In this document: one piece after another, positions 6,256 to 64,000 of the stretch
Layout of the letters: each line of letters opens with the position of its first letter
Numbering within the stretch: position 1 is the first letter of the stretch
DNA from: a bacterium
Lineage (GTDB): Bacteria > Cyanobacteriota > Vampirovibrionia > LMEP-6097
Direction of reading: 5' to 3'
DNA length: 64,000 nucleotides
NCBI GenBank assembly: GCA_038146805.1
Contig: JAYQSH010000003.1
Location: forward strand, 117,807-181,806
Program-made: the position numbers and the translations under genes
Notes under the pieces: model-generated
What the model saw: only the letters and a program-made list of their open reading frames with translations
Databases searched by the model: none
Told to the model about the DNA's origin: nothing

Positions 6256-8726
6256 ATGATTAAAGTCTATAAGCACTTTAATACTCCACTTGAACTCTTT
6301 TGGGGATTGAGCTTCAGTAAAATAATACGGATAATATTATTATCTACGGGGATAATAATATTATTTAATTACTGCAAACTAAGTCCCCAAAACCCATTAT
6401 CACTATTTATATTCATTCCAGCTGTATTCATTCTAGCTATTATTATCAAATCAGAAGATGACTTTTACACAAATTTAGTTTTACATCCATTTCAAGATCA
6501 TATATTTTTACTAAATAAAAAATCAAAAACATATGCAAACATCAAAACTACTATAAATAAAATTAAAGACTGTACTCTTTACAAAAATGATAAAAGCATA
6601 TGCCAAATAATTAAAATTGATTATGGCATTAGTATTCAAAACCTAAACAATGAAGAACAAGAAAGTATTTTAGATTTATGGTCAAGCTTACTAAGTGAGT
6701 ATAATAAAATAACTAATTACGATGATTACTTTGCTAATATATTACTCAAAGAGGAACTCACCTTGCATACAAGTATTAAGCAGGGCTCTAATGAAACCAT
6801 TTACTACATTGGCATTCATCAAGATGCTTTAAATGAAGATAAATCAATTATAGAAAGATTTATTGATCTAGTAAAAAACAAATTAGCATTAACAGACGCA
6901 CAAGACTATAACCATAAAAAAGAATTAATATTACTTAAAGAAAAAGTTGATTTTTGCAAGAGTTACTTAAATAAAATGCAAATCAACTGTAAATCACTTG
7001 ATGAATATGAAATTAAAAAACTTTTTGAAAATCAAGTTGGCTTTTTTTTTCAAAAAAAGGCTTACTGATTGATAAAGGAAATCATTTAGAACTCAAAGAG
7101 AATGGCAAAAAAACATTTTTAAAAAATTATTGTCTTGAAACTATCCCTGATAGTGGAGATTTGAATTTTTGGCTAAAAGATTTTTTCTTAAGATTCAAAA
7201 CAAACACTTTTATTACAATTAAATTTGAATATCGAGATGCCTATAAAGACATTAAAAAGGTAGAACAAAAAGCTAAATACCTAAATGAATTTAAAAAAAC
7301 CAAAAAAGCAATCAATAAAAGTATCATCCAAGAAAGCCAAAGCCTTTCAAAGACTTTAATAGAAAGACCCTATTCATTTAACTTAAGTATAGACTTGACA
7401 ATAAAATGCAATACTATTGATGACTTAAAAGAAATTGATCGATTAATAACTCGTCCGCATAAAAATGCAGTATGGAACAAACAAAGCCGTAAACAAATAA
7501 AAGGGCTCAAAGCAAATTTACTAGGCTCTAGAATTAATGAGTCACACAAAAAACACTATAGCGACTTAGCTTTAGCACAAGCATGTTTTTGTTTTTATGC
7601 CAATAACTTTCCCACAGATAGTCTTTTTAAGATCGGTAAATCTCTCACTGACAATAATGATATTTTTTTTAATGAAGCAAACAAAAAACTACACAAAACA
7701 AGATCAATAAACTTTATTGGCGATTCTGGATCAGGTAAATCAATGGCAGCAAAATTTATGATTAGCCAAAGACTAAAACACAGTATTCACAATCATTTTG
7801 TAATTATTGACAATAGTTCAGATGGCTGGACAGACTTTTGTCGTATTCACCAAGGTGAAATTATTGACCTTAATCAAGCTTTAGAACATAGGGTATATTT
7901 CAATCCATTACAAATTAACACTGAACTTGAACAACAAGTAAAAAACTTGAAAATACAAGAACTTTTATTATTTTTTAGAGCACTTAGCAATAATGACGAA
8001 CTTACTTTAGCAGAAATTGATTTTTTAACAAAAAGTTTAAATGCATTTTTTGATAAACAAAAGAACGCAAAACTTTCTGATTTATATTTGTTTTGGTCAA
8101 CATGGCACGATAAAGAGCTGACACAAAAATGGCAAATCTTAATTTCACCATATTGCAAGATCACAAATGGAGCATATGCATATCTTTTAGATGGAAGCCC
8201 TAGTAAATTTGACAAACAACTAACATTATTTCAATTTAGTAAAATCAATCAAGATTCTAATTTCTCTGATCTATGTATGTATCTTATTAACCAAGAGCTA
8301 CAAGTTAAAGCACAAGATCTTAATAAGAAAATCACTTTAGTTATTGATGAAGCCTGGAAAATTTTTCAAAGTAAAAAATCAAAAGATTTTTTTTCTTACT
8401 ATGCAAGAGCAGGTCGAGCTCTTGAATGTGCATTATGGACTATTAGCCAAAAACCTACAGACCTAGGACGTGAAATATATTCAAACGCTAGTAATAATAT
8501 AAGTTTTCATTTAAAAGAAAAAAAAGATCAAGAACAACTCAAAGCTATTGCTGGTTTTGCAGAACATGAATTAAAACTTTTTACAAATAGCTTATTAAAA
8601 ACAACAGGTTGCTGCCTTATAAAATCAAACTTTGGTACTGATTTAGTAGAAGTACAAGTAGCAAAAGAAGATTTATTAATATGTTCATCAGACAAAGATT
8701 GTTTAATGCAAAAAAAAGGACTTTGA
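6256..8726 (+). CDS. virB4: VirB3/VirB4-like T4SS ATPase, split into 6256..7068 and 7029..8726 by a -1 frame change at the T9-C-A7 tract (823 aa if joined)
   Basis: N-terminus has two TM helices (VirB3-like). Walker A FIGDSGSGKS, Walker B LVIDEAWKIF and TISQKPTDL are typical of VirB4/TrbE/TraC. The downstream frame is open from 7029 and encodes GLLIDKGNHL...FLKNYCLETIPDSGDLNFWL. The joined length fits VirB4. Confidence 0.75.
7053..7059 (+). promoter_or_regulatory. candidate -1 ribosomal frameshift heptamer A_AAA_AAG
   Basis: AAA and AAG are zero-frame codons (7054-7059). The zero frame stops two codons later (TGA at 7066). The -1 frame continues GGC TTA CTG into the ATPase body. May instead be a homopolymer indel. 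Confidence 0.3.
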
Positions 8727-41830: not shown

Positions 41831-41937
41831 TGAGACACTGCGGACCGTGTTATTTTTGTCTCACTTGTTATCTAGCACTCCACGCTGGCTAACAAGATAA
41901 GAGGTGGGACAAAAATAACACGGTCCGCAGTGTCTCA
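41831..41937. repeat. 107-bp foldback (MITE-like) built from two inverted copies of the 33-bp repeat
   Basis: TGAGACACTGCGGACCGTGTTATTTTTGTCTCA (41831-41863) pairs with its reverse complement at 41905-41937 (32/33). The 41-bp spacer contains its own IR CTTGTTA/TAACAAG. Confidence 0.85.
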
Positions 41938-44900
41938 AAAAGCTCCTATAATAACTAAAGTGAAATACCTGAAAACTATTTGTTTTACAGCATTTTTTTT
42001 GAGCGGCTTAGCCTCAATAGTTTATGAACTTACATGGATTCGCCTGCTTAGAAACATTTTTGGCTCAGATAGTCTTGCTTTTAGTTCCTTACTTACAATC
42101 TTTATTGGCGGTATCGCGACAGGCACATTTTTGTCAGGAAAATTTATCAAAAAATTTTTTAGTCTACCCTCTCGAGCATCAGAAGCACTAATTTTTGCAA
42201 TCGACAAAGCAAAGAATTTCTTTTTTATTTTGATATATGGCTTAATTGAACTTTTAGTTGGTATCTATGCACTCATAACACCCTTATTATTAAGCGAAAA
42301 TACACTTGGCTCAACTTGGATATTCTTATCAAAAGTTTTAAATGACAATATCATTTTACTTAGCTTAAGCAAATTTTTAATTGCCGGTTTTGTCCTGATA
42401 TTACCCACACTATTACTCGGACTCAGTTATCCGATTTTAGTAGAACTTGTAACAAGCAACGAAAACAAAACAGACAACAAATACCGACTTGGCAGTAGCA
42501 ATCTTTATGCAACCAACACACTCGGATCTATTTTTGGATCAATAATTGGTGGCTTTTTATTAATCCCGCACTTTGGACTCAAAACAAGCATTCTCATTGC
42601 TACCTTAATAAATTTCTTTATTGGTTTTTTGATATTTGTTTTACACAAAACAAACATACAAATGTTTTCAAATTTTAAAATAAAAGAAGCAATAAACTTT
42701 TTAATTACAAATGCAAAAACTGTTAAATTAGAAAACCAAAACAAACTCAAAAAATCGTTTTCATTTTGGCTTTTAGTTAGCATTGGCGTAATCTTAGGCT
42801 TTAGTAACTTAGGGCTTGAGGTGATTTGGAACAAGATCTTTGCACTTATAATCGGTTCATCTGTATATTCAGCAACTATTGTTATTTCTGTAGTGCTTGC
42901 AGGAATTAGCTTTGGCGCTTATAGCCTTAATTACTTTAGCAAAAAAATCAAAAACGAAAATATCGATATTTTTTTATGTGCGATAATTTTTGCGTTTTCT
43001 CTTTTGATTTTTGCAAGTAGTTTTTTACTAAATGCATGCCCATGGTTTTTTGTGAAAGTACATAAAATTTTCACAGCACTTGCTCAAGACAATTCATGGA
43101 TCTTTACCAATATAACTAAATATCTAACAGTCAGTTTAATAATTTTCCCAGTAACATTTCTTGAAGGATTAGCTTATGCAATCGTTCTTTACAAAGCATC
43201 AGAAATCACAAAAGAAAAAAACGATCCTGTAGGCTCAAGAATCGCTGTGATTTCATACTGGAACACAATCGGTGCCATTTTAGGTTCTTTTAGTGCAGGC
43301 TTTATATTGATACCCTTCTTTTCACAATTTGGCAGTGGCATTACAAACTCTATAAGATTTATTCTTGCTCTTGCTTTTATCACCACAATTTTAAGTTTGA
43401 TTAGTACAGGCAAAACAAAGCTAAAACATCTGTTATTGCTAATAGCAATAGCTATCACAGCGATATATTGTGTACCAACATTAGCAAAAAACACTTTGAA
43501 TTCAGGAACGGAAATTTATAAAGCAACAAAATTTAAAGACATCTCAAAAAAAAAATTCCTAGATGAAAACGAAGAAATTCTTTTTTATAAAGAAGGTCTA
43601 AACAGTATAGTAACGGTAGTCAAAGACGATGCAGCAAATGCAATTTTTTTAAAAAACAATGGAAAAATCGAAGCTGGAATCCCACTGCGTCCTGAATACC
43701 CCTCAAAAGCAGATACAATTACCCAAGATCTACTAGGAATTTTGCCCATCTTATTAAAGCCTGATAGTAAAAATGCTTTAGTGGTTGGCATGGGCTCAGG
43801 TAAAACAGTTGCCAGTCTTGCTATCAGTGGCAAAGAAAACAATTTAGAAGAAATAACAGTTTGCGAAATAGAAAGGGAAATCTTCAATGCCTCAAAAGAA
43901 TTTTTCGTAAAAAGTTTTCCAATAAAAGTTAACAAAAAAAACATCGATGCTCGTAATTTTTTGAATACAACTAAAGAAAGTTTTGACTTAATCATCTCTC
44001 AGCCTTCTGACCCTTGGATATCAGGAGCTCTATTTACCAAAGAATTTTGGTACAAAGTCAAATCACGACTAAGCGCACAGGGTATTTTTCTGCAGTGGCT
44101 ACAATTATACTCATTAGATGAAGAACACCTTGAAATTGCGCTCAGAACTTTCATTGAGAGTTTTCCACAAAGCTATATTTTCAGACCACCATTTTCAGCA
44201 GAACTTATTTTGGTAGGAACTGACAATCTGAATTTTTTCAACATCAATAAAACAGAAGAAAATATTTTCAAAAAAGATACATATAATGCTTTGTCACACA
44301 TTGGTATCAATGACAGTGCTGACCTTTTTGCAAATCTTGTTTTAACACCAAAAGATTTAAATGCACTTAAAAACAAAGCTGGGATTAACACAGACGACAA
44401 TATGTCTTTAGAGTTACATACATCAAAAAACATCGACAATTTTTTTGAAAGTATCAAAACAAATAATCAATACCTAAAAAAATTAGCCCAGCCAAATAAT
44501 TTATACAACTTTTTCAGCTCAATAGATGAAATAAATTTTTTAACCAAACTCAGTGTTGCTCATAACAAATTCCACAAAAAGAACAATCAAGAGATTTCCT
44601 CTTTCATCATCAACAAAATACATCAAGAAAACCCAAGCCCCATGAGCTTTCTAGCCCTTTATGAAATTTACAAATCTGATAATGAATTTGAAAAAGCAGA
44701 CTCAATAATTTATGAAGCTGCGAAAACTTATTCTGATTCCATCTCAAAAATCAATAACCAAACTTTTATTTTCAAAAACTTACATAACAATTTCCATTCT
44801 GATTTTGATCAAACTCTAGCAATGTATAAAATCTTTTTAAACGCACAAGACCGTGAAAACGCGAGCAAAGCCGAGCTTTTATTAAGAAAACAACTTGTAG

Positions 44901-45535
44901 AAAAAAAGAAAGAGTTGCGCAAAATTTATCTTGCGGAAATTTTTTACGAAAAAGCAAAATCAAACTTTGCCAACCTTACAGCAAACCCTGATTACAAAAC
45001 ACTTGAAGAAGTTTTAGAAGATTTAAAAAGAGCTCGCAAAAACAACCCTCAAAATTATTTATACCTTAAAGAACAAGCAAAAGTTTATTTATACAAAGCA
45101 AAATTATCACCGAATGATGCTGACAAATATAAAGATGATGCATTAAATTTTCTAGAAGCGGCAAACAAAATTTATGCATTAGATTATGAAACCCATGAAA
45201 TGCTGGCAGATATATACTATGAAACCCTACCAAAATCAGAGATTAAATTCATCAGTAAAAGTTCAGATAGTGATTTTGAAAATAAATTACAAAAAACCAT
45301 CAACTTTCTAAAAAACACTTTAGACTTAAATCAAAATTCAATTAAAGCTAATTATTATATGGCTGATATCCAATACAAAATGGGCAACCTCAAACTATGT
45401 ATCAAACATTTGGATAAACTCACAAAAATTTGTGAAGATCAAAACCTTTGTCTGAGTGAATTAAACAACGACAATAAACTTGCCTATGAAACTCTAAACA
45501 GTAAAATCAATAACCTAACTAATTTTGCAAAATAG
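41930..45535 (+). CDS. fused polytopic membrane / spermidine-synthase-like / TPR-like protein (1201 aa; GTG start at 41930 or 41960)
   Basis: N-terminal FFLSGLASIVYELTWIRLL and more than 10 TM helices. SpeE-like core VVGMGSGKT...IISQPSDPW. Helical-repeat C-terminus. Confidence 0.7.
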   Translation: MSQKAPIITKVKYLKTICFTAFFLSGLASIVYELTWIRLLRNIFGSDSLAFSSLLTIFIGGIATGTFLSGKFIKKFFSLPSRASEALIFAIDKAKNFFFILIYGLIELLVGIYALITPLLLSENTLGSTWIFLSKVLNDNIILLSLSKFLIAGFVLILPTLLLGLSYPILVELVTSNENKTDNKYRLGSSNLYATNTLGSIFGSIIGGFLLIPHFGLKTSILIATLINFFIGFLIFVLHKTNIQMFSNFKIKEAINFLITNAKTVKLENQNKLKKSFSFWLLVSIGVILGFSNLGLEVIWNKIFALIIGSSVYSATIVISVVLAGISFGAYSLNYFSKKIKNENIDIFLCAIIFAFSLLIFASSFLLNACPWFFVKVHKIFTALAQDNSWIFTNITKYLTVSLIIFPVTFLEGLAYAIVLYKASEITKEKNDPVGSRIAVISYWNTIGAILGSFSAGFILIPFFSQFGSGITNSIRFILALAFITTILSLISTGKTKLKHLLLLIAIAITAIYCVPTLAKNTLNSGTEIYKATKFKDISKKKFLDENEEILFYKEGLNSIVTVVKDDAANAIFLKNNGKIEAGIPLRPEYPSKADTITQDLLGILPILLKPDSKNALVVGMGSGKTVASLAISGKENNLEEITVCEIEREIFNASKEFFVKSFPIKVNKKNIDARNFLNTTKESFDLIISQPSDPWISGALFTKEFWYKVKSRLSAQGIFLQWLQLYSLDEEHLEIALRTFIESFPQSYIFRPPFSAELILVGTDNLNFFNINKTEENIFKKDTYNALSHIGINDSADLFANLVLTPKDLNALKNKAGINTDDNMSLELHTSKNIDNFFESIKTNNQYLKKLAQPNNLYNFFSSIDEINFLTKLSVAHNKFHKKNNQEISSFIINKIHQENPSPMSFLALYEIYKSDNEFEKADSIIYEAAKTYSDSISKINNQTFIFKNLHNNFHSDFDQTLAMYKIFLNAQDRENASKAELLLRKQLVEKKKELRKIYLAEIFYEKAKSNFANLTANPDYKTLEEVLEDLKRARKNNPQNYLYLKEQAKVYLYKAKLSPNDADKYKDDALNFLEAANKIYALDYETHEMLADIYYETLPKSEIKFISKSSDSDFENKLQKTINFLKNTLDLNQNSIKANYYMADIQYKMGNLKLCIKHLDKLTKICEDQNLCLSELNNDNKLAYETLNSKINNLTNFAK

Positions 45536-51839: not shown

Positions 51840-54417
51840 ATGCAAGCGTTATCCTGTCAAGAAATTAGAGATTTATGGGTTGAGTTTTTTACCAAGAAAT
51901 GTCCCAGTGCTCATAAAGCACATAAAATCAGCATCGTTGGTTCCGGACAATCCAACCTTACTTTTAAATGCGGCTGGAATGGTGCAATTTGTACCAATTT
52001 TTTTGGGGACAAAACCTGCAACAGAACCTCCAAGAGCTGTAACAATTCAAAAATGTGCACGTGTAGGTGGTAAAGATAGTGACTTAGAAAATATTGGTCG
52101 CACTGCAAGACACCATAGCTTTTTTGAGATGTTGGGAAATTTTTCTTTTGGCGACTATTTTAAACAGCAAGCTATTCCATGGGCTTGGCAATTTGTAACT
52201 GAAGAACTTAAATTAGACAAAGAAAAACTCTATGTTTCCGTATTTGCTGGTGATGAGCAAAATCCTTTTGATCAAGAAGCTTACGACACTTGGAAAGAAA
52301 TAATCTCAGAAGATCGAATCTGGAAAATGTCGCGTAAGGATAACTTCTGGGGTCCACCAGGAGAAACAGGTCCTTGTGGTCCATGCAGTGAAATTTATTA
52401 TGAAGTAAATCCATCAGCAACAGAATTTGATGATAGATATACTGAAATTTGGAATTTGGTTTTTATGGAATTCTTCAAAGATGAAAACGCAAACTTTAGC
52501 GCACTTGAGAAAAAAAATATCGATACAGGGGCTGGACTTGAAAGAATTGCAACAATTCTACAAGATGTCAACAATACTTTTGAAACAGATGAATTGTTTT
52601 TTGTATTAGAAAAAATCGCATCACGTCTTGCTATCAAGTACCAAGGAAATAATTCTGAAACAGATTTATACTTAAAAATTATTACAGACCATTTGCGCTG
52701 TGCCGCTTTTCTTATTGCTGACGGGGTTCGTCCTTCTAACTTAGGGCGTGGTTATGTACTAAGAATGATAATTAGAAGAGCCTCAAGATTTGTTTATTTA
52801 ATTCAAAACAAAGCTGAAGCTTTTTTGACTTACCTAGCTAAAGACCTAGCGCAAGCTTACCAAAAAGCTTACCCAGAACTCAACACAAATCTTGCACAAA
52901 TTGAATCATGTTTAGAAAAAGAAGAACTCGCCTTTGCAAAAACACTCGAACAAGGACTTGAAATTTTAAACAAAAAACTTAGCGAAATTTCTAACAAAGA
53001 ATTAGATGGCGAATTTGCGTTTAATTTATACTCAACCTATGGCTTTCCTTTAGAGCTCACCAAAGATATAGTGGAACAACAAAATATCAGTATAAATCTT
53101 GAAGAGTTTGAAATAGCAAAAGAAAAACATACGCAAGCATCAGGCTCTGGTGCTGTTGCAAAATCAGTAGAACAAAATACATTTATAGCTGATATTTTAA
53201 AAGAACATGGCAAAACTAAATTTATTGGTTATCACGATAATTTAAAAGCAGAAGCCAAAGTACTCTATGTTGCAGACAATAAAGTAGTTTTGGATCAAAC
53301 TTGTTTTTATGCTGAATCAGGCGGTCAAATTGCAGACATTGGTAAACTTGCAAACACAAAAGTTACAAATGTAAAATCAATTGAAGGAGTCTTTGTACAT
53401 CAGTTAGAATCAAGTGCTGAATTAAAGGTAAACGATATTGTCAGCTTGGAAGTTGACAAAAATAATCGAGAATTCACCAAGAAACATCACACCAGTTGTC
53501 ACTTGTTACAAGCGGCGCTGAGAAATACACTAGGCTCTGGCATACAACAAATGGGTTCACAAGTTGGTGCTGAGTATACTAGGTTTGATTTCAATTTAGA
53601 TCGTGCAATGACTAAGCAAGAAATAAGCGCAGTTGAAAATCAAATTAACTTATGGATCGAGAAAGACTTAAGCGTTGAAACAAAAGTAATGCAGTTTGAT
53701 GATGCTGTTAAAGCAGGTGCTTTGAGTTTCTTTGAAGACAAATACGATGACGAAGTAAGAGTTTTGTTTATTGGTGATGCATCAATAGAACTTTGCGGTG
53801 GCACTCATGTTGATAAGCTTTCAGAAATCAAAAATATTGTAATCGCTCAAGAAGGCTCTATTGCATCTGGTATTAGAAGAATAAAGCTCCTTGCAAACAC
53901 AGTCGCAGACGAATTTATCGCAGAAAAAGACAAAGCTTTTGCTGAGCAAAAAGCTCTTGAAGAACAAAAAGAAAAAGAGAAAGAAGCACAAAAAGCAAAA
54001 CTAAAAATCGAAAAAGAAGAATTGCTCGCTTTAACTAATTCTATTTTGGAGCAAGCTGATCAGAGTAATGAGACAAAAGTTGTAATTCTTTACGCAAATG
54101 AATTTTTTAATAAAGAATATTCAAGCGAAAGTATAAAGGCACTAGTTGAAAATTTAACAGCTAAGAATCCAGCATCGTTTTTAGTTTTTATTGCATGTCA
54201 CACAAATGACAAAGTTGTTTTTTATAGTGCCGTAAGCAATGATTTAATCAAAGAATTTAATGCTGGCAATATTGTCAAAGAAGCGGCAAAAATTTGTGGC
54301 GGTGGCGGCGGCGGCAGACCTAATTTTGCTCAAGCTGGTGGCAAAGATATTAGTAAAATTCATGAAGCAATTAGTTTTGTGAAGAATTTAGTATTAGGGC
54401 AAGCGGCAAATGCTTAG
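51840..54417 (+). CDS. alaS: alanine-tRNA ligase, with a +1 frame change in codons ~28-30
   Basis: ATG at 51840 encodes MQALSCQEIRDLWVEFFTKK (conserved EIR..FF). The body, SASLVPDNPTLLLNAAGM onward, is in the next frame. The junction is at the A4 run 51924-51927. Confidence 0.85.
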
Positions 54418-55780
54418 TATTCCTAGAGAAGAAATCAATGAATTAATAAACACATACGGAACAGCCGTGCCAAGATACACAAGCTACCCCACGGCTCCAG
54501 AATGGAAAGATGTTTTTTCTCAAGAACAATTTGAAGCGGCAATTGCAAAATCAAATCTTACACAAGAAGATTTTTCTTTGTATTTGCATATCCCTTTTTG
54601 TGAATCTCAGTGCTATTTTTGCGGTTGTAACGTAGTCATCAGCCCAAAGCACGGCATTGAAGAAGAATACCTAACTCACCTATTTAGTGAGATTGATTAT
54701 TACGGAAACTTATTTGACAAAGAAAGAAAAGTTGCACAAATGGCTTGGGGCGGAGGCACTCCAAGTTATTTGAGTGTCAAACAAATCTATGATCTTTACA
54801 AAAAGTTAGATGATAACTTTAATATGTACAAGAATAAAAACGATAACTATGAATATGCAATAGAGATTGATCCAAGAGTAACAAACAAAGAACAACTACA
54901 AGCTCTTTATGATTGCGGCTTTAATCGCCTAAGCATGGGGATTCAAGATTTCAATACAAGTACACAACTTGCCATAAATAGAATTCAAAGTGCTGAAGAT
55001 GTCTTTAACTTAACGCAGCAAGCTAGAGAAATTGGTTTTAATAGTATTAATTACGATTTAATTTATGGGCTGCCATTTCAAACAATGACTAGTTTCCAAG
55101 AAACAATTGCTGTTATCAAAGAACATGCACCTGACAGAATTGCTCTATTTAATTACGCACACTTACCTGAAATGATTGCGCATCAAAAAAAATATATTGA
55201 TGAAACGACTTTACCAGATACTAAAACTAAACTAGAAATTTTTGATAGCTCGGTTGTAGCATTTACAAACTTTGGTTATGAATTTATCGGTATTGATCAC
55301 TTTGCAAAAAAATCAGATTCTCTTGTAACTGCTTATAAAAACAAAAGTTTATATAGAAACTTTCAAGGTTATACAACTTTTTCTGGTTGCGACATGATTT
55401 CTTTTGGTATTACAGCAATTAGTGATATTCAAGGTGCCTATAAACAAAACGCAAAAAAGATGAACGATTATTACAAAGACTTTAAAATGGCCCAAAAAGC
55501 AAAATTCTCTGACACAAATGATATTACAAGAAGAACAATCATCAAAGAAATCATGTGCAACAACTTTGTTGTGATAAACAAAAATCATTTTTCGCATGAA
55601 ATAGAGCTATTAAACAGCTTCGCTAAAGATAATCTGCTTAAAATTTCTCAAAAAAATGAGGAGCTTGTAAATATAGAATTAACTAGCATTGGTAGGTTCT
55701 TTTCTAGAAATATTGCTAGTGTTTTTGATGACTACCTCAATAAAAAAACAGCATTCAAAGCATTTTCTCAATCACTGTAA
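54410..55780 (+). CDS. hemN: oxygen-independent coproporphyrinogen III oxidase (radical SAM)
   Basis: YLHIPFCESQCYFCGCN. Start overlaps the alaS stop. Confidence 0.85.
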   Translation: MLSIPREEINELINTYGTAVPRYTSYPTAPEWKDVFSQEQFEAAIAKSNLTQEDFSLYLHIPFCESQCYFCGCNVVISPKHGIEEEYLTHLFSEIDYYGNLFDKERKVAQMAWGGGTPSYLSVKQIYDLYKKLDDNFNMYKNKNDNYEYAIEIDPRVTNKEQLQALYDCGFNRLSMGIQDFNTSTQLAINRIQSAEDVFNLTQQAREIGFNSINYDLIYGLPFQTMTSFQETIAVIKEHAPDRIALFNYAHLPEMIAHQKKYIDETTLPDTKTKLEIFDSSVVAFTNFGYEFIGIDHFAKKSDSLVTAYKNKSLYRNFQGYTTFSGCDMISFGITAISDIQGAYKQNAKKMNDYYKDFKMAQKAKFSDTNDITRRTIIKEIMCNNFVVINKNHFSHEIELLNSFAKDNLLKISQKNEELVNIELTSIGRFFSRNIASVFDDYLNKKTAFKAFSQSL

Positions 55781-58098: not shown

Positions 58099-59163
58099 TT
58101 AAGCGAAGCAATAGTTTTGCACTGTTTTTATAAAAGTTTTGGCAGATTCAACAGGTACACTAGGTATAATCCCATGACCTAAATTCGCTATATACCCGGG
58201 GGCTGATCCAGCTTGCTCAAGCATAATTCGAGTGTTTTTTTCTACCTGCTCAGGGCTTGCAAGCAAAGCACAAGGATCAAAATTACCTTGAATAGCAATA
58301 TTTTGCCCAGCAACATACTCTCTAATATCTTTTAAATTCACACGCCAATCAACACTCAAACAATTTGCGCCGGTCTGTAACATGTAATCTAAAACATTAC
58401 TTACACCATTTACATATAAAGTAATTGAAGCGTTAGGATATTTTTCTCTAATGTTTGAAACAATTTTTTGTTGATACGGCAAAGCAAATTCTTGATAATC
58501 TTTTTGACTAAGTACAGAAGCCCAAGTGTCAAACAACTGCAAAGCATGAACACCGGTATCAAGTTTATTGAGTAAATAATTACTAACTGAAATTGTAAGT
58601 TTTTCTAGTAAAAGATGCATAGCTTGTGGCTGCAAGTACATCATTTTTTTTATATGTGCAAAATCCTTTGAGCCACCACCTTCTATCATGTAGCTAGCAA
58701 GAGTCCAAGGTGCACCAGCAAAACCCAAAATAGGAATTTCATTATTTAACTTTGCGGCAATCTCTTCGATAGTTTCATAGACATAATGACACTGATTTTT
58801 TAATTGCTCTTTATCAAGCGCAATCAATTTATCAATATCCTCACAACTACGAGTAGGATTTACAAACCTTGGCTTACCCGTATCAAAATCCAAACCTGCA
58901 CCCATAGGCTCAAGCAAAACTAAAATATCCGAAAACATAATAATGGCATCGACACCTAGAATTTCATATGGCTGTAAAGAAACCTCTGCAGCTTTTTTTG
59001 GATTTTTACAAAGTTCCAAAAAAGACATTTGCGACCTTATCGCTTGATATTCAGGAAGATAGCGACCAGCTTGGCGCATCATCCATACCGGCGCACGATT
59101 TGTTTTTTCACAATTAAGTGCTCTTAAAATTAAATCGTTCTTTATACTTGTCGCAGACACCAT
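58099..59163 (-). CDS. hemE: uroporphyrinogen decarboxylase
   Basis: PVWMMRQAGRYLPEY. Confidence 0.9.
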   Translation of the reverse strand: MVSATSIKNDLILRALNCEKTNRAPVWMMRQAGRYLPEYQAIRSQMSFLELCKNPKKAAEVSLQPYEILGVDAIIMFSDILVLLEPMGAGLDFDTGKPRFVNPTRSCEDIDKLIALDKEQLKNQCHYVYETIEEIAAKLNNEIPILGFAGAPWTLASYMIEGGGSKDFAHIKKMMYLQPQAMHLLLEKLTISVSNYLLNKLDTGVHALQLFDTWASVLSQKDYQEFALPYQQKIVSNIREKYPNASITLYVNGVSNVLDYMLQTGANCLSVDWRVNLKDIREYVAGQNIAIQGNFDPCALLASPEQVEKNTRIMLEQAGSAPGYIANLGHGIIPSVPVESAKTFIKTVQNYCFA

Positions 59164-59328: not shown

Positions 59329-59772
59329 TTATGCGCCTTCCTTCTCAAGCTCAGCAACGACTTCTTGCTTAAACTCTTCAACTCTATCTTTAAAAGTCCC
59401 AACTTGAACTTCTGACATCCATAAACCTTTAAGTCTATTTTTTGGTACAGATTTTTTAATCATAGGAGGTCTTACACCCAATAACCTTTCTCTACAAAAT
59501 TTATTTCCTTCTCTAAAGTGACAATCACCAATCTGGCAACCCATCGCTATGACACCGTCTGCACCGGCATTGAAAGCCGACTCAATCATACGAGGTTGAA
59601 TCATTCCAGAACAAGGCACTTGTACAACATAGGCATTATTAACACCATCAAGATCTCTGCCATGTTGCCCAGAAAGATGACCATCAAGATTAACACTTCT
59701 CTCGCAAGCAATAACCATAACTTTGACGTTGTCGGTATTTTTTGTTTCTTTAGTTATTTCTTCAGTAGACAT
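59329..59772 (-). CDS. MvhD/FlpD-like hydrogenase iron-sulfur subunit family protein
   Basis: VMVIACERS...VVQVPCSGMIQPRMIESAFNAGADGVIAMGCQIGDCHFREGN matches the methyl-viologen-reducing hydrogenase delta subunit signature. Confidence 0.75.
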   Translation of the reverse strand: MSTEEITKETKNTDNVKVMVIACERSVNLDGHLSGQHGRDLDGVNNAYVVQVPCSGMIQPRMIESAFNAGADGVIAMGCQIGDCHFREGNKFCRERLLGVRPPMIKKSVPKNRLKGLWMSEVQVGTFKDRVEEFKQEVVAELEKEGA

Positions 59773-59787
59773 AAATTTTCCTTTTTA

Positions 59788-60936
59788 CTAAGCAGCAACA
59801 GCCTCGTCTTGTTCTAAAGCGATTCTAATATCATCCATCACGACTGGCGACATTGTATGTGGTAGTTCAATAGCATCAAAATTACATGCACCAACACACA
59901 AACCACACTCAGCACAACGTTCATCAATAACGATAGCTAGTTCTTTAAACTTAGAACCATCGTTTCTTGGTGCCATATAAATTGCTTCATAAGGACAATC
60001 AACAGAGCAAAGTTTGCAACCAACACATTTATTTGAGTTTACACTTGCAGGCTCATGATCTTTTGACTCAACTAAGCTCGGTAAAATAGTGGCAATAACA
60101 ACACCAGCAACAACCATTAACCAAGTTAAAGGATAACCTATGATTTTCATGACTGGGAAAATCCATAAATAGAACCAATCAATATCAAAATATGTTGGTT
60201 GCACAGTGAAATCTGCTTCAGGACCTGAAATCGCTGGGAACATCGCTGAAAAAACTAAAACAATACCAGCAAGTAAACAGCCAATAGCCCAAGTGACATT
60301 GACTAAAGGTCTTGAGATTCTCATATAATGTACCCATAGCATTACTAGCAATGACAAAGAAATTCCAGCATGAATAAAAAATGACATTGACATTGTCAAG
60401 TTTGAAATCACATTATCATTTATAAATGCATGAGAAAGAGCATCACCAATAAAAGGAACAGCGGCTAAAAACTCAGAAACCATTGTGACAATAATAAAAG
60501 ACCTTTCATCCCAAACCAAAATATAGCCAGATATACCAATCGCTAACATCATAATGGTAAGTGCGATTCCAGAATACCAAGCAATAATTCTATACTCTCT
60601 GTATCTGTCAGTGAAATAAACACGCAAAGCATGTAACCAAACAGCAAGCATCATGCCATCAGCAGCGTATCTATGCAAACCTCTAATAATATCTCCAAAA
60701 GGAATTTTTTGAGTAATGTACTCAACACTTTGGTAAGCCGCTTCAAGTGTACAAGTGTAATAAGCAAACAACAACAAACCAGACAAAAAGAGCATCCACA
60801 TAAAAAAGTTTGGAATAGCTCCGTGGTAATAAAGTATATTTTGCTCTGAGCCAAAAACCTTATTCAAAAGATCTTCTAGCTTCAATAGAGCTTTTTGTCC
60901 TTCTCTTACTATCTTAGTTAATACAGCCGATATCAT
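59788..60936 (-). CDS. cytochrome b (four His ligands, PEWY-like region) fused to a C-terminal 2x[4Fe-4S] ferredoxin domain
   Basis: RGLHRYAADGMMLAVWLHALRVYF (His spacing 14), GYILVWDE, FFIHAGISLSLLVMLWVHY (His spacing 14), DWFYLWIFP, then CVGCKLCSVDCP and CAECGLCVGACN. Confidence 0.75.
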   Translation of the reverse strand: MISAVLTKIVREGQKALLKLEDLLNKVFGSEQNILYYHGAIPNFFMWMLFLSGLLLFAYYTCTLEAAYQSVEYITQKIPFGDIIRGLHRYAADGMMLAVWLHALRVYFTDRYREYRIIAWYSGIALTIMMLAIGISGYILVWDERSFIIVTMVSEFLAAVPFIGDALSHAFINDNVISNLTMSMSFFIHAGISLSLLVMLWVHYMRISRPLVNVTWAIGCLLAGIVLVFSAMFPAISGPEADFTVQPTYFDIDWFYLWIFPVMKIIGYPLTWLMVVAGVVIATILPSLVESKDHEPASVNSNKCVGCKLCSVDCPYEAIYMAPRNDGSKFKELAIVIDERCAECGLCVGACNFDAIELPHTMSPVVMDDIRIALEQDEAVAA

Positions 60937-61294: not shown

Positions 61295-61582
61295 CTAATT
61301 TTCCTTAACTTTAAACCTTTTATATAAACTATCAAATGGAGCAAAACTAACTCTAAGGTTGTCTTTTGCTTTTTCCTCTGAATAAATCTCAAAAGCCATA
61401 AAAAACAATGACCCAGCCAAAGCAAAAGCACAAAGAGCAATTACAGCATAAGCTGTAACTGTATCGCCGGCATTGAAATATTTATAAGAAGTAAAAAACT
61501 TAGTAATAGCTACAGTAGCAACTATAAAAGCAAAATAGAAAGCAAAATTTAATTTCTTTTTGTTTTGTTTTGTCGCTGACAT
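61295..61582 (-). CDS. small membrane protein (2 TM)
   Basis: Hydrophobic ORF tightly packed within the operon. Confidence 0.5.
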   Translation of the reverse strand: MSATKQNKKKLNFAFYFAFIVATVAITKFFTSYKYFNAGDTVTAYAVIALCAFALAGSLFFMAFEIYSEEKAKDNLRVSFAPFDSLYKRFKVKEN

Positions 61583-61584
61583 AG

Positions 61585-63087
61585 TTAAGCTTTTTGCTCC
61601 TCTATTTTTGCTTGAGTATTTTCATAAGCCCAAATAACAACCATTAAGGCAAAGAAACCACCATAAAAAATCCAATTACGACCCCAAGAACCATCCGCAA
61701 AAAATGTTTTATCTAATAAATTATTCAAAGGCAAACCAAAATAAGGAACTGTATGAATCCTAGATAAATAAAGCAATTGGAAAATAGTATAAACTAACAT
61801 TAATTTCCATCTGTCAATTTTTGCGTACTGTTTTTGTGACAAATATATTCCAATAGCAACAATCATAGTACTTCCAAAAATCCAGTACGGTGGGTCTGTA
61901 TTAATATTTGCGATATTTAGAATAATTAAAACAGAAAAAACAATTGCATTAATCGCACCCATAATAGACAAGCACATGACAATTGGTCTTCTGTGAATTT
62001 TAGTCTCTGGTGATCTATCAAAAAACGGCATCAACAATACAGTTGCTGGAATCAAAATAGTAACAAAAGTAGCAAGTACTGGTTCAATGTATTTGTACAT
62101 TTGATACAAAGCTAGAAAATACCAGTCAGAAAGAATTGGTAACGGAGTTACAGAAGGATTGGCACGAGCACCAAATTCTGCAGGGAAAATCATTGCTGCG
62201 GCAGCAATCATACCAATAACAAGAAAGCCTTCAATCCATGGTAGATTAAAACGTTTCTTTTTATTAGAGTAAAAATATAATTCAACAATAATTAGACCAA
62301 TTGTTGAAAGTGCCATGTGCATTGAATAAAATCTGGTAATTGTTGCTTGTCCAATTGCAGAACCACCTAAAAGAATTTGTTGAGTAGTCATTCCTAAGTT
62401 AAAATTTATATACTCGTTTAAAAGCTTCATGTCCCACAAAATACCTCCGCCTTCTTCAACAGGAACAGCAGGTAAACTTGTTGGCACACCCCATTCAATA
62501 AGTTTGTTCACAATCGTTGCTCCCAGAAAGGCAAGATTTAATCCAAATTGATCCATGTAACCCGGGAAGGTAGCAAATACTTTTGTAGCCCAAAAAGCTC
62601 TTTGGTTCCAAATTAAAAGATATCCAGAAAGTCCAGAATAAAAACCAAGTAAGAGCAAAAAGAAACAAACCCAAAAATTAAGCTCACGCTTACCTTTATA
62701 ATCAGCGCAAATCACAATACGATAAATTTTCAAAGTACAAATAATGATAAAGGCATCAGCACCATACTTGTGCATGCCACGTATCAACCATCCTGTTGGA
62801 ATGTGGTCTTGAATATTCATGATACTTGAATAAGCCTGCTCAGCAGTTGGAATATAAAACATCATTAACACAGCACCGGTGACAATCGTTACAATCCAAG
62901 TGAGCCACTGTAAAGGACCAAGCTTATACCAAACATTTTCTTTTTGTTTATCAACAAAAGTTTCGTCAAAAAAATCAATATTTTTCAAGCGCGGCATTAC
63001 CATCTTGTTGATTACTTCATCAATAGAAGGCAACATTGAAAGTAAATTTGCAAGACCTTGTTTATCGTTTTTTATTTCAGCTGACAT
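61585..63087 (-). CDS. long cytochrome b homolog (b6 plus subunit IV plus extra C-terminal TMs) lacking both bH/bn His ligands
   Basis: [27 protein letters not shown] aligns with b6 [64 protein letters not shown] and [10 protein letters not shown] are also present. Confidence 0.75.
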   Translation of the reverse strand: [500 protein letters not shown]

Positions 63088-63692
63088 TATGAAATACCTC
63101 CAGACTCAAGCGAACTAATTACTATATCAGCACCCTCAATTTTGAAATTAAATTTAAATGGTGATCTTGGAGCAGGTCCAGACACAACTTTTCCACGCCC
63201 CTTTGTATCAGTTTGCATGGGGTCATACACTGATAAGTGACAAGGACAAGCAAAGACTTTTTGTCCGGGAAACGGAGTGTAGTTGTAACCAGCAGCAACT
63301 TCCGCTTCAACTGGAACAAAATTGAACACACAACCTAAGTGCGGGCATACTCTTGAAAAAACAACAAAGTTTGGAAAACCATCCATATCAGGAGTTCTAA
63401 CAACAGCACCCGGAATAGTTTTTATTTGCTCACCAACTGCAGTATATTCACGATTTGCTTCTTGGAACATAAAATATTTAAACGACCAAGCAGAAGGAAA
63501 ATCAGTCATTGAAAACTTAATTTGTTTTACTGGAGCTGGTTTATCAGGTCTTTTGAAAATTTCGGCAGTCGCTGTAGGACCCGAACTAGGCTTTAAAAAC
63601 CTAACAAAAGGTGAAGCAAAAATCGCAGCCAGTGTACCTACTACTGGGATTGCTAATAAACCTTTTACAAAATCTCTTCTATCAAATTTCAT
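63087..63692 (-). CDS. Rieske [2Fe-2S] protein with a Tat signal
   Basis: MKFDRRDFVKG, CPHLGC and CPCHLSVYD. TAATG overlap with the cytochrome b start. Confidence 0.85.
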   Translation of the reverse strand: MKFDRRDFVKGLLAIPVVGTLAAIFASPFVRFLKPSSGPTATAEIFKRPDKPAPVKQIKFSMTDFPSAWSFKYFMFQEANREYTAVGEQIKTIPGAVVRTPDMDGFPNFVVFSRVCPHLGCVFNFVPVEAEVAAGYNYTPFPGQKVFACPCHLSVYDPMQTDTKGRGKVVSGPAPRSPFKFNFKIEGADIVISSLESGGIS

Positions 63693-64000
63693 TTAATTAC
63701 CCTCACCTATAGATTTTTTGTACTCTTGTAATTTTTCACGCCCAAGATCTAATCTATCTTTTTCTTGAGTATGAGAGAACTGTCTAACATAACGAACTAA
63801 TTTCCAAATCATTTCTTCATCAAATTTGATTTTCTTATCAAAATCGTATCTGTTTTTCCAAGCAGGCATTGCTGTCCAAGGAATACCATACATTAATTCA
63901 TTGAAGAGTTTTTCATCTGTTCTGGTATAAAGTCTTTCTGTCATAGTAAAGTTTGCAGGCGGTGGATACAAAGACTTATGTAAGTTACCATCACCATGAC
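63693..64000 (-). CDS. c-type cytochrome, N-terminus outside window
   Basis: Frame continues upstream of the track start as (C)HGDGNLHKSLYPPPANF, the end of a CXXCH motif. MPAW-type Met ligand region IPWTAMPAWK. Confidence 0.65.
   Translation of the reverse strand, partial: HGDGNLHKSLYPPPANFTMTERLYTRTDEKLFNELMYGIPWTAMPAWKNRYDFDKKIKFDEEMIWKLVRYVRQFSHTQEKDRLDLGREKLQEYKKSIGEGN

Follow-up and report, generated by a model that had tools for sequence, protein, structure and literature searches.

The four histidines that hold two b haems are regarded as a defining feature of cytochrome b, on which the Q cycle relies. The nearest natural precedent for loss of such a ligand is the cyanobacterial cytochrome b subfamily K, in which the helix-2 haem-ligand His is replaced by Glu or Gln and the Gly accommodating the N-side haem bn is lost (Dibrova et al. 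2017, PMC5600118). In cross-inactivated bc1, electron transfer between the two bL haems sustains turnover (PMC7908018, section 3.3; fusion templates in PMC3276305). For the anammox complexes Kuste4569-4574 and Kustd1480-1485, which have an N-side NAD(P) oxidoreductase, it has been proposed that bifurcation at the quinol-oxidation (Qo) site drives electrons into a series of Fe-S clusters on the N side, which fits their high-potential Rieske proteins (PMC12954380). A fused 'complex III-IV' operon has been ascribed in the literature to aerobic Melainabacteria; the published accounts label its genes petB/petC or bc1 and are silent on haem ligands (PMC6349859, PMC8235220). Here we describe a long cytochrome b, predicted to be the quinol-oxidising (Qo-site) subunit of a complex III-IV operon of Caenarcaniphilales (Vampirovibrionia, non-photosynthetic cyanobacteria), in which the N-side haem ligands are replaced. 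It is encoded in a 64,000-nt stretch of DNA, hereafter the window, which corresponds to positions 117,807-181,806 of the forward strand of contig JAYQSH010000003.1 (assembly GCA_038146805.1) and has a G+C content of ~32%; all coordinates given below are window positions. The best homologs of this protein were from Melainabacteria/Vampirovibrionia, the closest genomes (74-84% identity) being those of Caenarcaniphilales.

The long cytochrome b joins a b6-like and a subunit-IV-like part in one chain, with additional helices at the C-terminus, and it matched PF00033 with 88.6 bits (cut-off, 27.2) and PF00032 with 36.9 bits (cut-off, 20.7). A phmmer search against PDB chains aligned it in two stretches with cytochrome b6 (E = 1.8e-24; references 2zt9_A, 1vf5_A and 1q90_B). 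Both ligands of the P-side haem bp were retained (H106 and H257, corresponding to b6 H86 and H187, respectively), whereas K120 and Y271 occupied the positions of the two ligands of haem bn, b6 H100 and H202, respectively. The same four ligand columns were obtained from MAFFT alignments in which a b6 fragment and the second cytochrome b of the operon (the paralog) served as references. Misalignment was rejected, as three such MAFFT alignments were concordant with each other and with the HMMER alignment to the PDB chains. A preliminary description of this DNA, made from the sequence alone, had claimed that the P-side histidines are kept and both N-side ones replaced. This was borne out. Of the 'Y/F' that it had placed on helix D, the Tyr stood and the Phe turned out to be a neighbouring residue: the His-to-Tyr spacing is 14, equal to that of bc1 and of the paralog, so that the homologous residue is Tyr271 and not the adjacent Phe.

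Other His ligands one helix turn away were also considered. The long protein contains five His residues (95, 106, 257, 365 and 445), with one each in helices B and D, and only H106 and H257 were invariant among the relatives; substitute His ligands for haem bn were therefore rejected. Hence, of the four His needed for bis-His ligation of two b haems, only the bp pair was found, and the long protein should not be classed as an ordinary bc1 or b6 cytochrome b. Nor did it show the traits of the b6 type, namely a short four-helix b6 apart from subunit IV and the CxGG motif with the haem-cn Cys; the Cys was replaced by Lys (KLGP compared to CLGG) and was found at this position in no relative. Compared to b6 and bc1, ~50 residues are inserted on the P side (residues ~180-232, window 62392-62550), after the cd region and ahead of helix D; this insert includes the sequence EEGGG, and AlphaFold2 modelled it poorly. 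It was also noticed that residue 105 (window 62773-62775), which adjoins the bp ligand, differed between the window protein (RGMHKY) and the database cluster representative P0001 (RGKHKY), although the two were listed as 100% identical.

A scan of GTDB with one genome per species yielded 275 related loci, 80 of which were compared; together with the window protein, these provided 81 long proteins. At the b6 H86 position, His was found in all 80 of the 81 proteins that covered it, one sequence being truncated there, and at the H187 position in 81/81. At the H100 position, the 80 proteins covering it had K (24 proteins) or R (56 proteins) and never His, the Lys being confined to Caenarcaniphilales and the Arg found in all other members. 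The H202 position was Tyr in 81/81, with a family-specific Glu two residues ahead of it in each case (E269 in the window protein). The same 81 proteins all contained LSDWY, which includes the variant of the PEWY motif of the Qo site. As these substitutions recur across 80 relatives, they represent a family trait and not an assembly artefact; the possibility that K and Y/F are unique to this assembly, which the preliminary description had asked to be checked in orthologs, is thus contradicted.

The family was then delimited by a wider, profile-free phmmer scan over 1.84 billion representative proteins, in which the score dropped sharply after ~25 clusters. On the near side of the drop, all 20 family representatives covering helix B had R or K there, and the helix-D residue was Y, H, R or F, always within E-x-[YHRF]. 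Past the drop, all but a handful of the other full-length hits were canonical cytochromes b with four His, and in the 111 canonical representatives taken from the same search His was present at all four positions. By source name, the family members came from Vampirovibrionia, Holophagaceae (Acidobacteriota) and Armatimonadota. Denoting the residues at the two bn ligand positions on helices B and D in this order, the Holophagaceae locus was R..R and two further lineages were R..H; a subclade keeps the helix-D His. An SDWY-type motif was present in the Holophagaceae locus and in other relatives outside Vampirovibrionia as well.

The paralog was only about 24% identical to the long cytochrome b. 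It aligned over its full length with cytochrome b6 and, in agreement with the preliminary description, kept all four His ligands (H88/H102 and H189/H203), as did 77/77 recovered relatives. It is composed of a b6-like part, two further helices and a C-terminal ferredoxin domain with two [4Fe-4S] clusters, whose two CxxCxxCxxxC motifs were present in 74/77 relatives. Six helices (A-F) were predicted, and from this number and the b6/subunit IV topology the ferredoxin domain would be situated on the cytoplasmic (N) side, near haem bn of the paralog. The ferredoxin domain matched residues 568-645 of HdrA2 and residues 577-638 of 5odc_A, the C-terminal ferredoxin domain of HdrA. The product of the last gene of the operon, hereafter the FlpD protein, matched HdrA2 646-768, directly after the ferredoxin-domain segment, and also MvhD (5odc_D, E = 5e-15). 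Its Cys23, Cys54, Cys79 and Cys84 were invariant (74/74), and it is predicted to be a [2Fe-2S] member of the MvhD/FlpD family. That the two proteins match consecutive segments of HdrA2 supports a continuous wire running from haem bn of the paralog (bn') through [4Fe-4S], [4Fe-4S] and [2Fe-2S]. In place of the haem-cn CxGG of b6, the paralog has YYHGA or YFHGA (residues 36-39, window 60820-60831). H38 in this motif was conserved in 77/77 relatives and, outside Vampirovibrionia, in the Holophagaceae locus and two more lineages with the same oxidase-linked operon; it could be a ligand for an extra N-side cofactor or quinone.

Synteny was assessed by tblastn searches of the 80 loci with the window proteins as queries. 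In every locus long enough, the genes were arranged as cytochrome c, Rieske, cytochrome b (K/R..Y), small open reading frames (ORFs) or a C-terminal extension, ferredoxin-fused cytochrome b, and FlpD. Cytochrome c was directly upstream of Rieske in nearly all 80 loci, the exceptions being contigs that ended just upstream of Rieske; the four loci without the paralog were on contigs ending within ~1.2 kb of the long b gene; and FlpD followed the second cytochrome b in all loci of adequate length. In the closest relative and in Obscuribacter phosphatis, genes for CcoN and a CcoO-cytochrome c fusion were located upstream of the cytochrome c gene, which identifies the operon as the fused complex III-IV operon mentioned above. 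The same operon with CcoN, CcoO and two small ORFs was found in Holophagaceae (R..R) and in the two further lineages (R..H). The motifs of the Rieske cluster were CPHLGC and CPCHLSVY, the latter conserved in 70/80 relatives. Ser and Tyr after CPCH are the signature of high-potential clusters in Rieske proteins.

A second architecture was found on a distant branch (R..Y, PDWY) in two loci, L087 (946-8471) and L088 (5053-12575). Here the order was 1) Rieske, 2) ferredoxin-fused cytochrome b with four His, 3) FlpD, 4) a polyferredoxin (Fer4), 5) a ShyB/AsrA-like Fe-S protein, 6) a ShyC/AsrB/PyrK-like NAD(P)/FAD protein, 7) cytochrome b (R..Y), and 8) two small ORFs, and neither cytochrome c nor oxidase was present in these two loci. 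The Rieske protein lacked the high-potential Ser/Tyr (CRCHDGVF) and was of the low-potential type, and the long cytochrome b carried an insert of ~280 residues between helices A and B. A gene for an NAD(P)/FAD oxidoreductase was present only in L087 and L088, and was found neither in the window operon nor in the 80 related loci. Since the two b genes, Rieske, FlpD and the two small ORFs stay together despite the shuffled order, it is argued that they form one unit; since the arm in L087/L088 ends in an NAD(P)(H)-binding flavoprotein, the kind of redox partner used by the Fe-S arm is indicated. The two small ORFs came after the K/R cytochrome b in every operon type, and their products, small membrane proteins 1 and 2, are probably subunits, judging from this position.

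The next point to be considered is whether the long cytochrome b has lost haem bn or binds it in another way. That the substitutions result from misalignment, assembly error or a decaying pseudogene has a negligible probability, because three alignment methods agree, the reading frame is unbroken and closely spaced with its neighbours, its start overlapping the Rieske stop, and the same residues are present in 80 independent assemblies and hundreds of metagenomic proteins. Besides the ligands, the N-side pocket is remodelled, with a relaxed helix-C Gly, new aromatic residues in helix A and a new Glu in helix D. The bn-side Gly of helix C, found in 111/111 canonical proteins, is A, S, C, T or G in the family (C in the window protein) and has become Ala, Ser or Cys in most members; the bp-side glycines are unchanged across the family. 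In helix A, position 41 (b6 numbering) is L/A/V in canonical proteins and Y/W in the family, and position 44 is F/L and W, respectively; both point to the bundle interior, placing bulky residues on the haem-facing side. Position 200 is A/V/G/L in canonical proteins and E in the family. From these sequence features, the long cytochrome b probably contains no haem bn. A haem bn still bound without His would be tyrosinate-ligated or five-coordinate, with the Lys/Arg distal or charge-compensating, and the protein would be a two-haem b whose N-side haem is unusual, probably high-spin or of very low potential. Tyrosine can serve as a haem ligand, examples being catalase and HasA, and its strict conservation within Vampirovibrionia, together with the helix-D His of the subclade, could mean that a haem is held without a pair of His ligands. 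Several other observations also weigh against haem loss: G57 of helix A, which leaves space for haem bn, is conserved (80/80); at +3 from the helix-B ligand position there is an invariant Arg (R123), normally the partner of a bn propionate; and the helix-C position still has a small residue (A/C/G). Of the four haem-spacing glycines of helices A and C, three are kept in the window protein (G57, G71 and the bp-side helix-C Gly). The AlphaFold2 model of the long cytochrome b, built from a 20-sequence alignment, was weak (mean predicted local distance difference test score, 62.9). However, the residue most often found on helix B, Arg, does not coordinate haem iron, and with R or F on helix D in some members (R..R in Holophagaceae) no ligand is common to the whole family, to which the changes in helices A and C described above must be added. 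Retention of haem bn in this form is thus considered unlikely, and the same grade is given to a non-His-ligated haem or other cofactor at the bn site. The Lys/Tyr-ligated b haem suggested by the preliminary description appears unlikely as well, since Lys, restricted to one order, was judged a poor candidate for an iron ligand when most members have Arg, and helix D is Y/H/R/F in the wider family. Its expectation of a b subunit lacking a normal Qi site agrees with the sequences: where bc1 has its quinone-binding His, at +5 from the helix-D ligand, the residue is variable in the family (K/A/G), and without a conserved Qi-site His and haem cn an ordinary Qi site is not expected, whether haem bn is present or absent.

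On balance, we lean towards a scheme in which the long b, without haem bn and a Qi site, pairs with the second b and delivers the low-potential electron to the Fe-S arm. The long subunit would have one haem only (bp), a Qo site and no Qi site, and the second cytochrome b would take the place of the second monomer in an ordinary cytochrome b dimer. Upon quinol oxidation at Qo, one electron would pass to Rieske and on through the dihaem cytochrome c to the cbb3 oxidase, and the second would move from bp to the partner's bp' and then to bn', from which it could enter the Fe-S wire, i.e. the ferredoxin domain and then MvhD, to reach a cytoplasmic acceptor. Alternatively, quinone might be reduced at the N side of the partner, with the wire giving the second electron, and the flow in the Fe-S arm could run either way. 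Sideways transfer of the low-potential electron from the long b to the second b is plausible, because the b genes strictly co-occur in two operon types across several phyla and bL-bL transfer has been proven in engineered bc1. Against the scheme, the paralog has its own PEWY-like motif (xDWF/Y) with only one Rieske gene available, the operon type of the window has no gene for a cytoplasmic partner of MvhD, and the heterodimer is deduced from the co-occurrence of the genes. The last point, a link seen in gene co-occurrence and not in contact, would equally suit two separate co-transcribed enzymes: a quinol:cytochrome c oxidoreductase without Q cycle (Rieske, one-haem b and cytochrome c) feeding cbb3, and a ferredoxin- or NAD(P)H-linked quinone oxidoreductase made of the ferredoxin-fused b and MvhD. 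Each b protein would then use its own PEWY-like motif, and the Fe-S arm with the four-His haems alone would be enough for transmembrane electron transfer to quinone. But the linkage of both b genes, Rieske, FlpD and the two small ORFs is maintained in two operon orders and in distant phyla, and, on the accepted view of the Q cycle, a Qo site would stall or leak electrons to oxygen if its low-potential haem had no outlet; two such enzymes are therefore held to be rather improbable. Extended to Vampirovibrionia, Holophagaceae and Armatimonadota, the paired scheme would describe an asymmetric Rieske/cytochrome b machine in which O2 reduction by cbb3 drives quinol-based bifurcation to ferredoxin or NAD(P)H with no Q cycle, a proposal that we make tentatively and regard as possible but on the doubtful side.

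When compared to canonical bc1/b6f, the long cytochrome b shares the PF00033/PF00032 fold, the bp ligands, the bp-side glycines, the WxQ and PEWY-type Qo elements, a Rieske gene next to its own, and the supply of electrons to a c-type cytochrome and an oxidase. It differs in that both bn His are replaced (K/R and Y), the helix-C bn Gly is relaxed, the haem-cn Cys and a conserved Qi His are absent, the Qo motif is SDWY, the ~50-residue insert and extra C-terminal helices are present, and a second, different cytochrome b is always co-encoded. Subfamily K, in contrast, is short and accessory beside a normal b6f, has Glu/Gln instead of Arg/Lys, and has no Rieske/oxidase operon or Fe-S partner described (PMC5600118). 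The design proposed here, with Qo and bL on one half and bL and bH on the other, is that of the cross-inactivated or fused bc1 dimers engineered in Rhodobacter capsulatus (PMC7908018, section 3.3; PMC3276305); whereas those are laboratory constructs with two copies of one gene, the asymmetry here would be natural and ancient, with two genes as divergent as noted above and an Fe-S domain on the receiving subunit. Similar to the present case, the anammox Rieske/cytochrome b complexes have a chain of Fe-S clusters in the cytoplasm, a proposed delivery of the low-potential Qo electron to NAD(P)+ rather than to a Qi quinone, and a high-potential Rieske, and their arm ends in an NAD(P)/FAD protein as in the L087/L088 operons. 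However, they were modelled as homodimers of a four-His, haem-cn b6 plus subunit IV, whereas here the roles would be split over a haem-bn-less b and a ferredoxin-fused b, MvhD is used, and the window operon, which encodes no NAD(P) subunit, is linked to a cbb3 oxidase; the likeness is one of design and not of membership. With the Mvh-Hdr complex (5ODC) and HdrA2, the operon shares the consecutive match of ferredoxin domain and FlpD and the conserved Cys ligands, but the wire is on a membrane b6-type cytochrome and not on flavin-based bifurcating HdrA or hydrogenase.

In a literature search of incomplete coverage, nothing was found that describes, for these operons, the loss of the ligands, the pairing of two cytochromes b or the MvhD arm, and the ligand loss and the two-b operon are probably new to the literature. 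A natural, widespread family exists whose Qo subunit is without the N-side His pair. If the proposed scheme is true, it would provide a natural test case for two debated ideas, electron transfer between the halves of a cytochrome b dimer and Qo bifurcation that reduces low-potential carriers in the cytoplasm, the latter suggested until now for anammox bacteria alone. The result also matters for studies of the evolution of the organisms most closely related to oxygenic cyanobacteria, in which these genes have been annotated as petB/petC or bc1 (PMC6349859, PMC8235220) although the enzyme is not an ordinary b6f or bc1.

In the window, the genes form a tightly packed minus-strand operon extending from ~59.3 kb to the window end (Table 1). 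The cytochrome c gene is cut by the window end, so that the expected cbb3 genes would be outside the window; cbb3 oxidase genes were seen further upstream in loci L001 and L054. The full-length cytochrome c ortholog of locus L001 has 262 amino acids, contains CSSCH and CAVCH motifs, and matches PF13442/PF00034.

Table 1. Genes of the operon and residues of the long cytochrome b, with their positions in the window
Feature	Position	Strand	Evidence or remark
Dihaem cytochrome c, C-terminal part	63693..64000	-	Translation open upstream without a stop; gene runs past the window end
Rieske [2Fe-2S] protein with twin-arginine signal	63087..63692	-	Matches to PF00355 and TIGR01416; RRDF twin-arginine (Tat) motif
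Long cytochrome b, 500 amino acids	61585..63087	-	Matches to PF00033, PF13631 and PF00032; aligns to PDB b6 and subunit IV chains
H106, helix-B ligand of P-side haem bp (b6 H86)	62770..62772	-	phmmer and MAFFT
K120, at helix-B ligand position of N-side haem bn (b6 H100)	62728..62730 (codon AAA)	-	phmmer and MAFFT
H257, helix-D ligand of P-side haem bp (b6 H187)	62317..62319	-	phmmer and MAFFT
E269-L270-Y271, Y271 at helix-D bn ligand position (b6 H202)	62275..62283 (Tyr codon TAT, 62275-62277)	-	One gap in HMMER alignment
S320-D321-W322-Y323, variant of the PEWY quinol-oxidation (Qo) motif	62119..62130	-	
Small membrane protein 1, 95 amino acids, two hydrophobic stretches	61295..61582	-	No Pfam match
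Small membrane protein 2, 111 amino acids	60956..61291	-	No Pfam match; tblastn, 42-80% identity in Caenarcaniphilales loci
Second cytochrome b fused to 2x[4Fe-4S] ferredoxin domain, 382 amino acids	59788..60936	-	PF00033, 98.7 bits; Fer4_7 and related models
Predicted MvhD/FlpD-type [2Fe-2S] electron-transfer protein, last operon gene	59329..59772	-	PF02662, 79.2 bits (cut-off, 22.3)

ORFs of haem biosynthesis (window 58099-59163 and 54410-55780) adjoin the operon. The hemE gene (uroporphyrinogen decarboxylase) comes immediately after the MvhD gene in the downstream direction, and many Caenarcaniphilales loci keep the two genes side by side; an ORF for a HemN-like oxygen-independent coproporphyrinogen oxidase, identified by translation only, was located ~3.5 kb from the operon. 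Elsewhere in the window, an ORF at 7161-8726 contained TraG P-loop / AAA_10 (VirB4-like) domains, suggesting a component of a type IV secretion or conjugation system, of a kind that has been discussed in connection with predatory Vampirovibrio. In addition, an ORF of 1201 amino acids at 41930-45535 combined a region similar to major facilitator superfamily (MFS) transporters with a spermidine-synthase-like domain.

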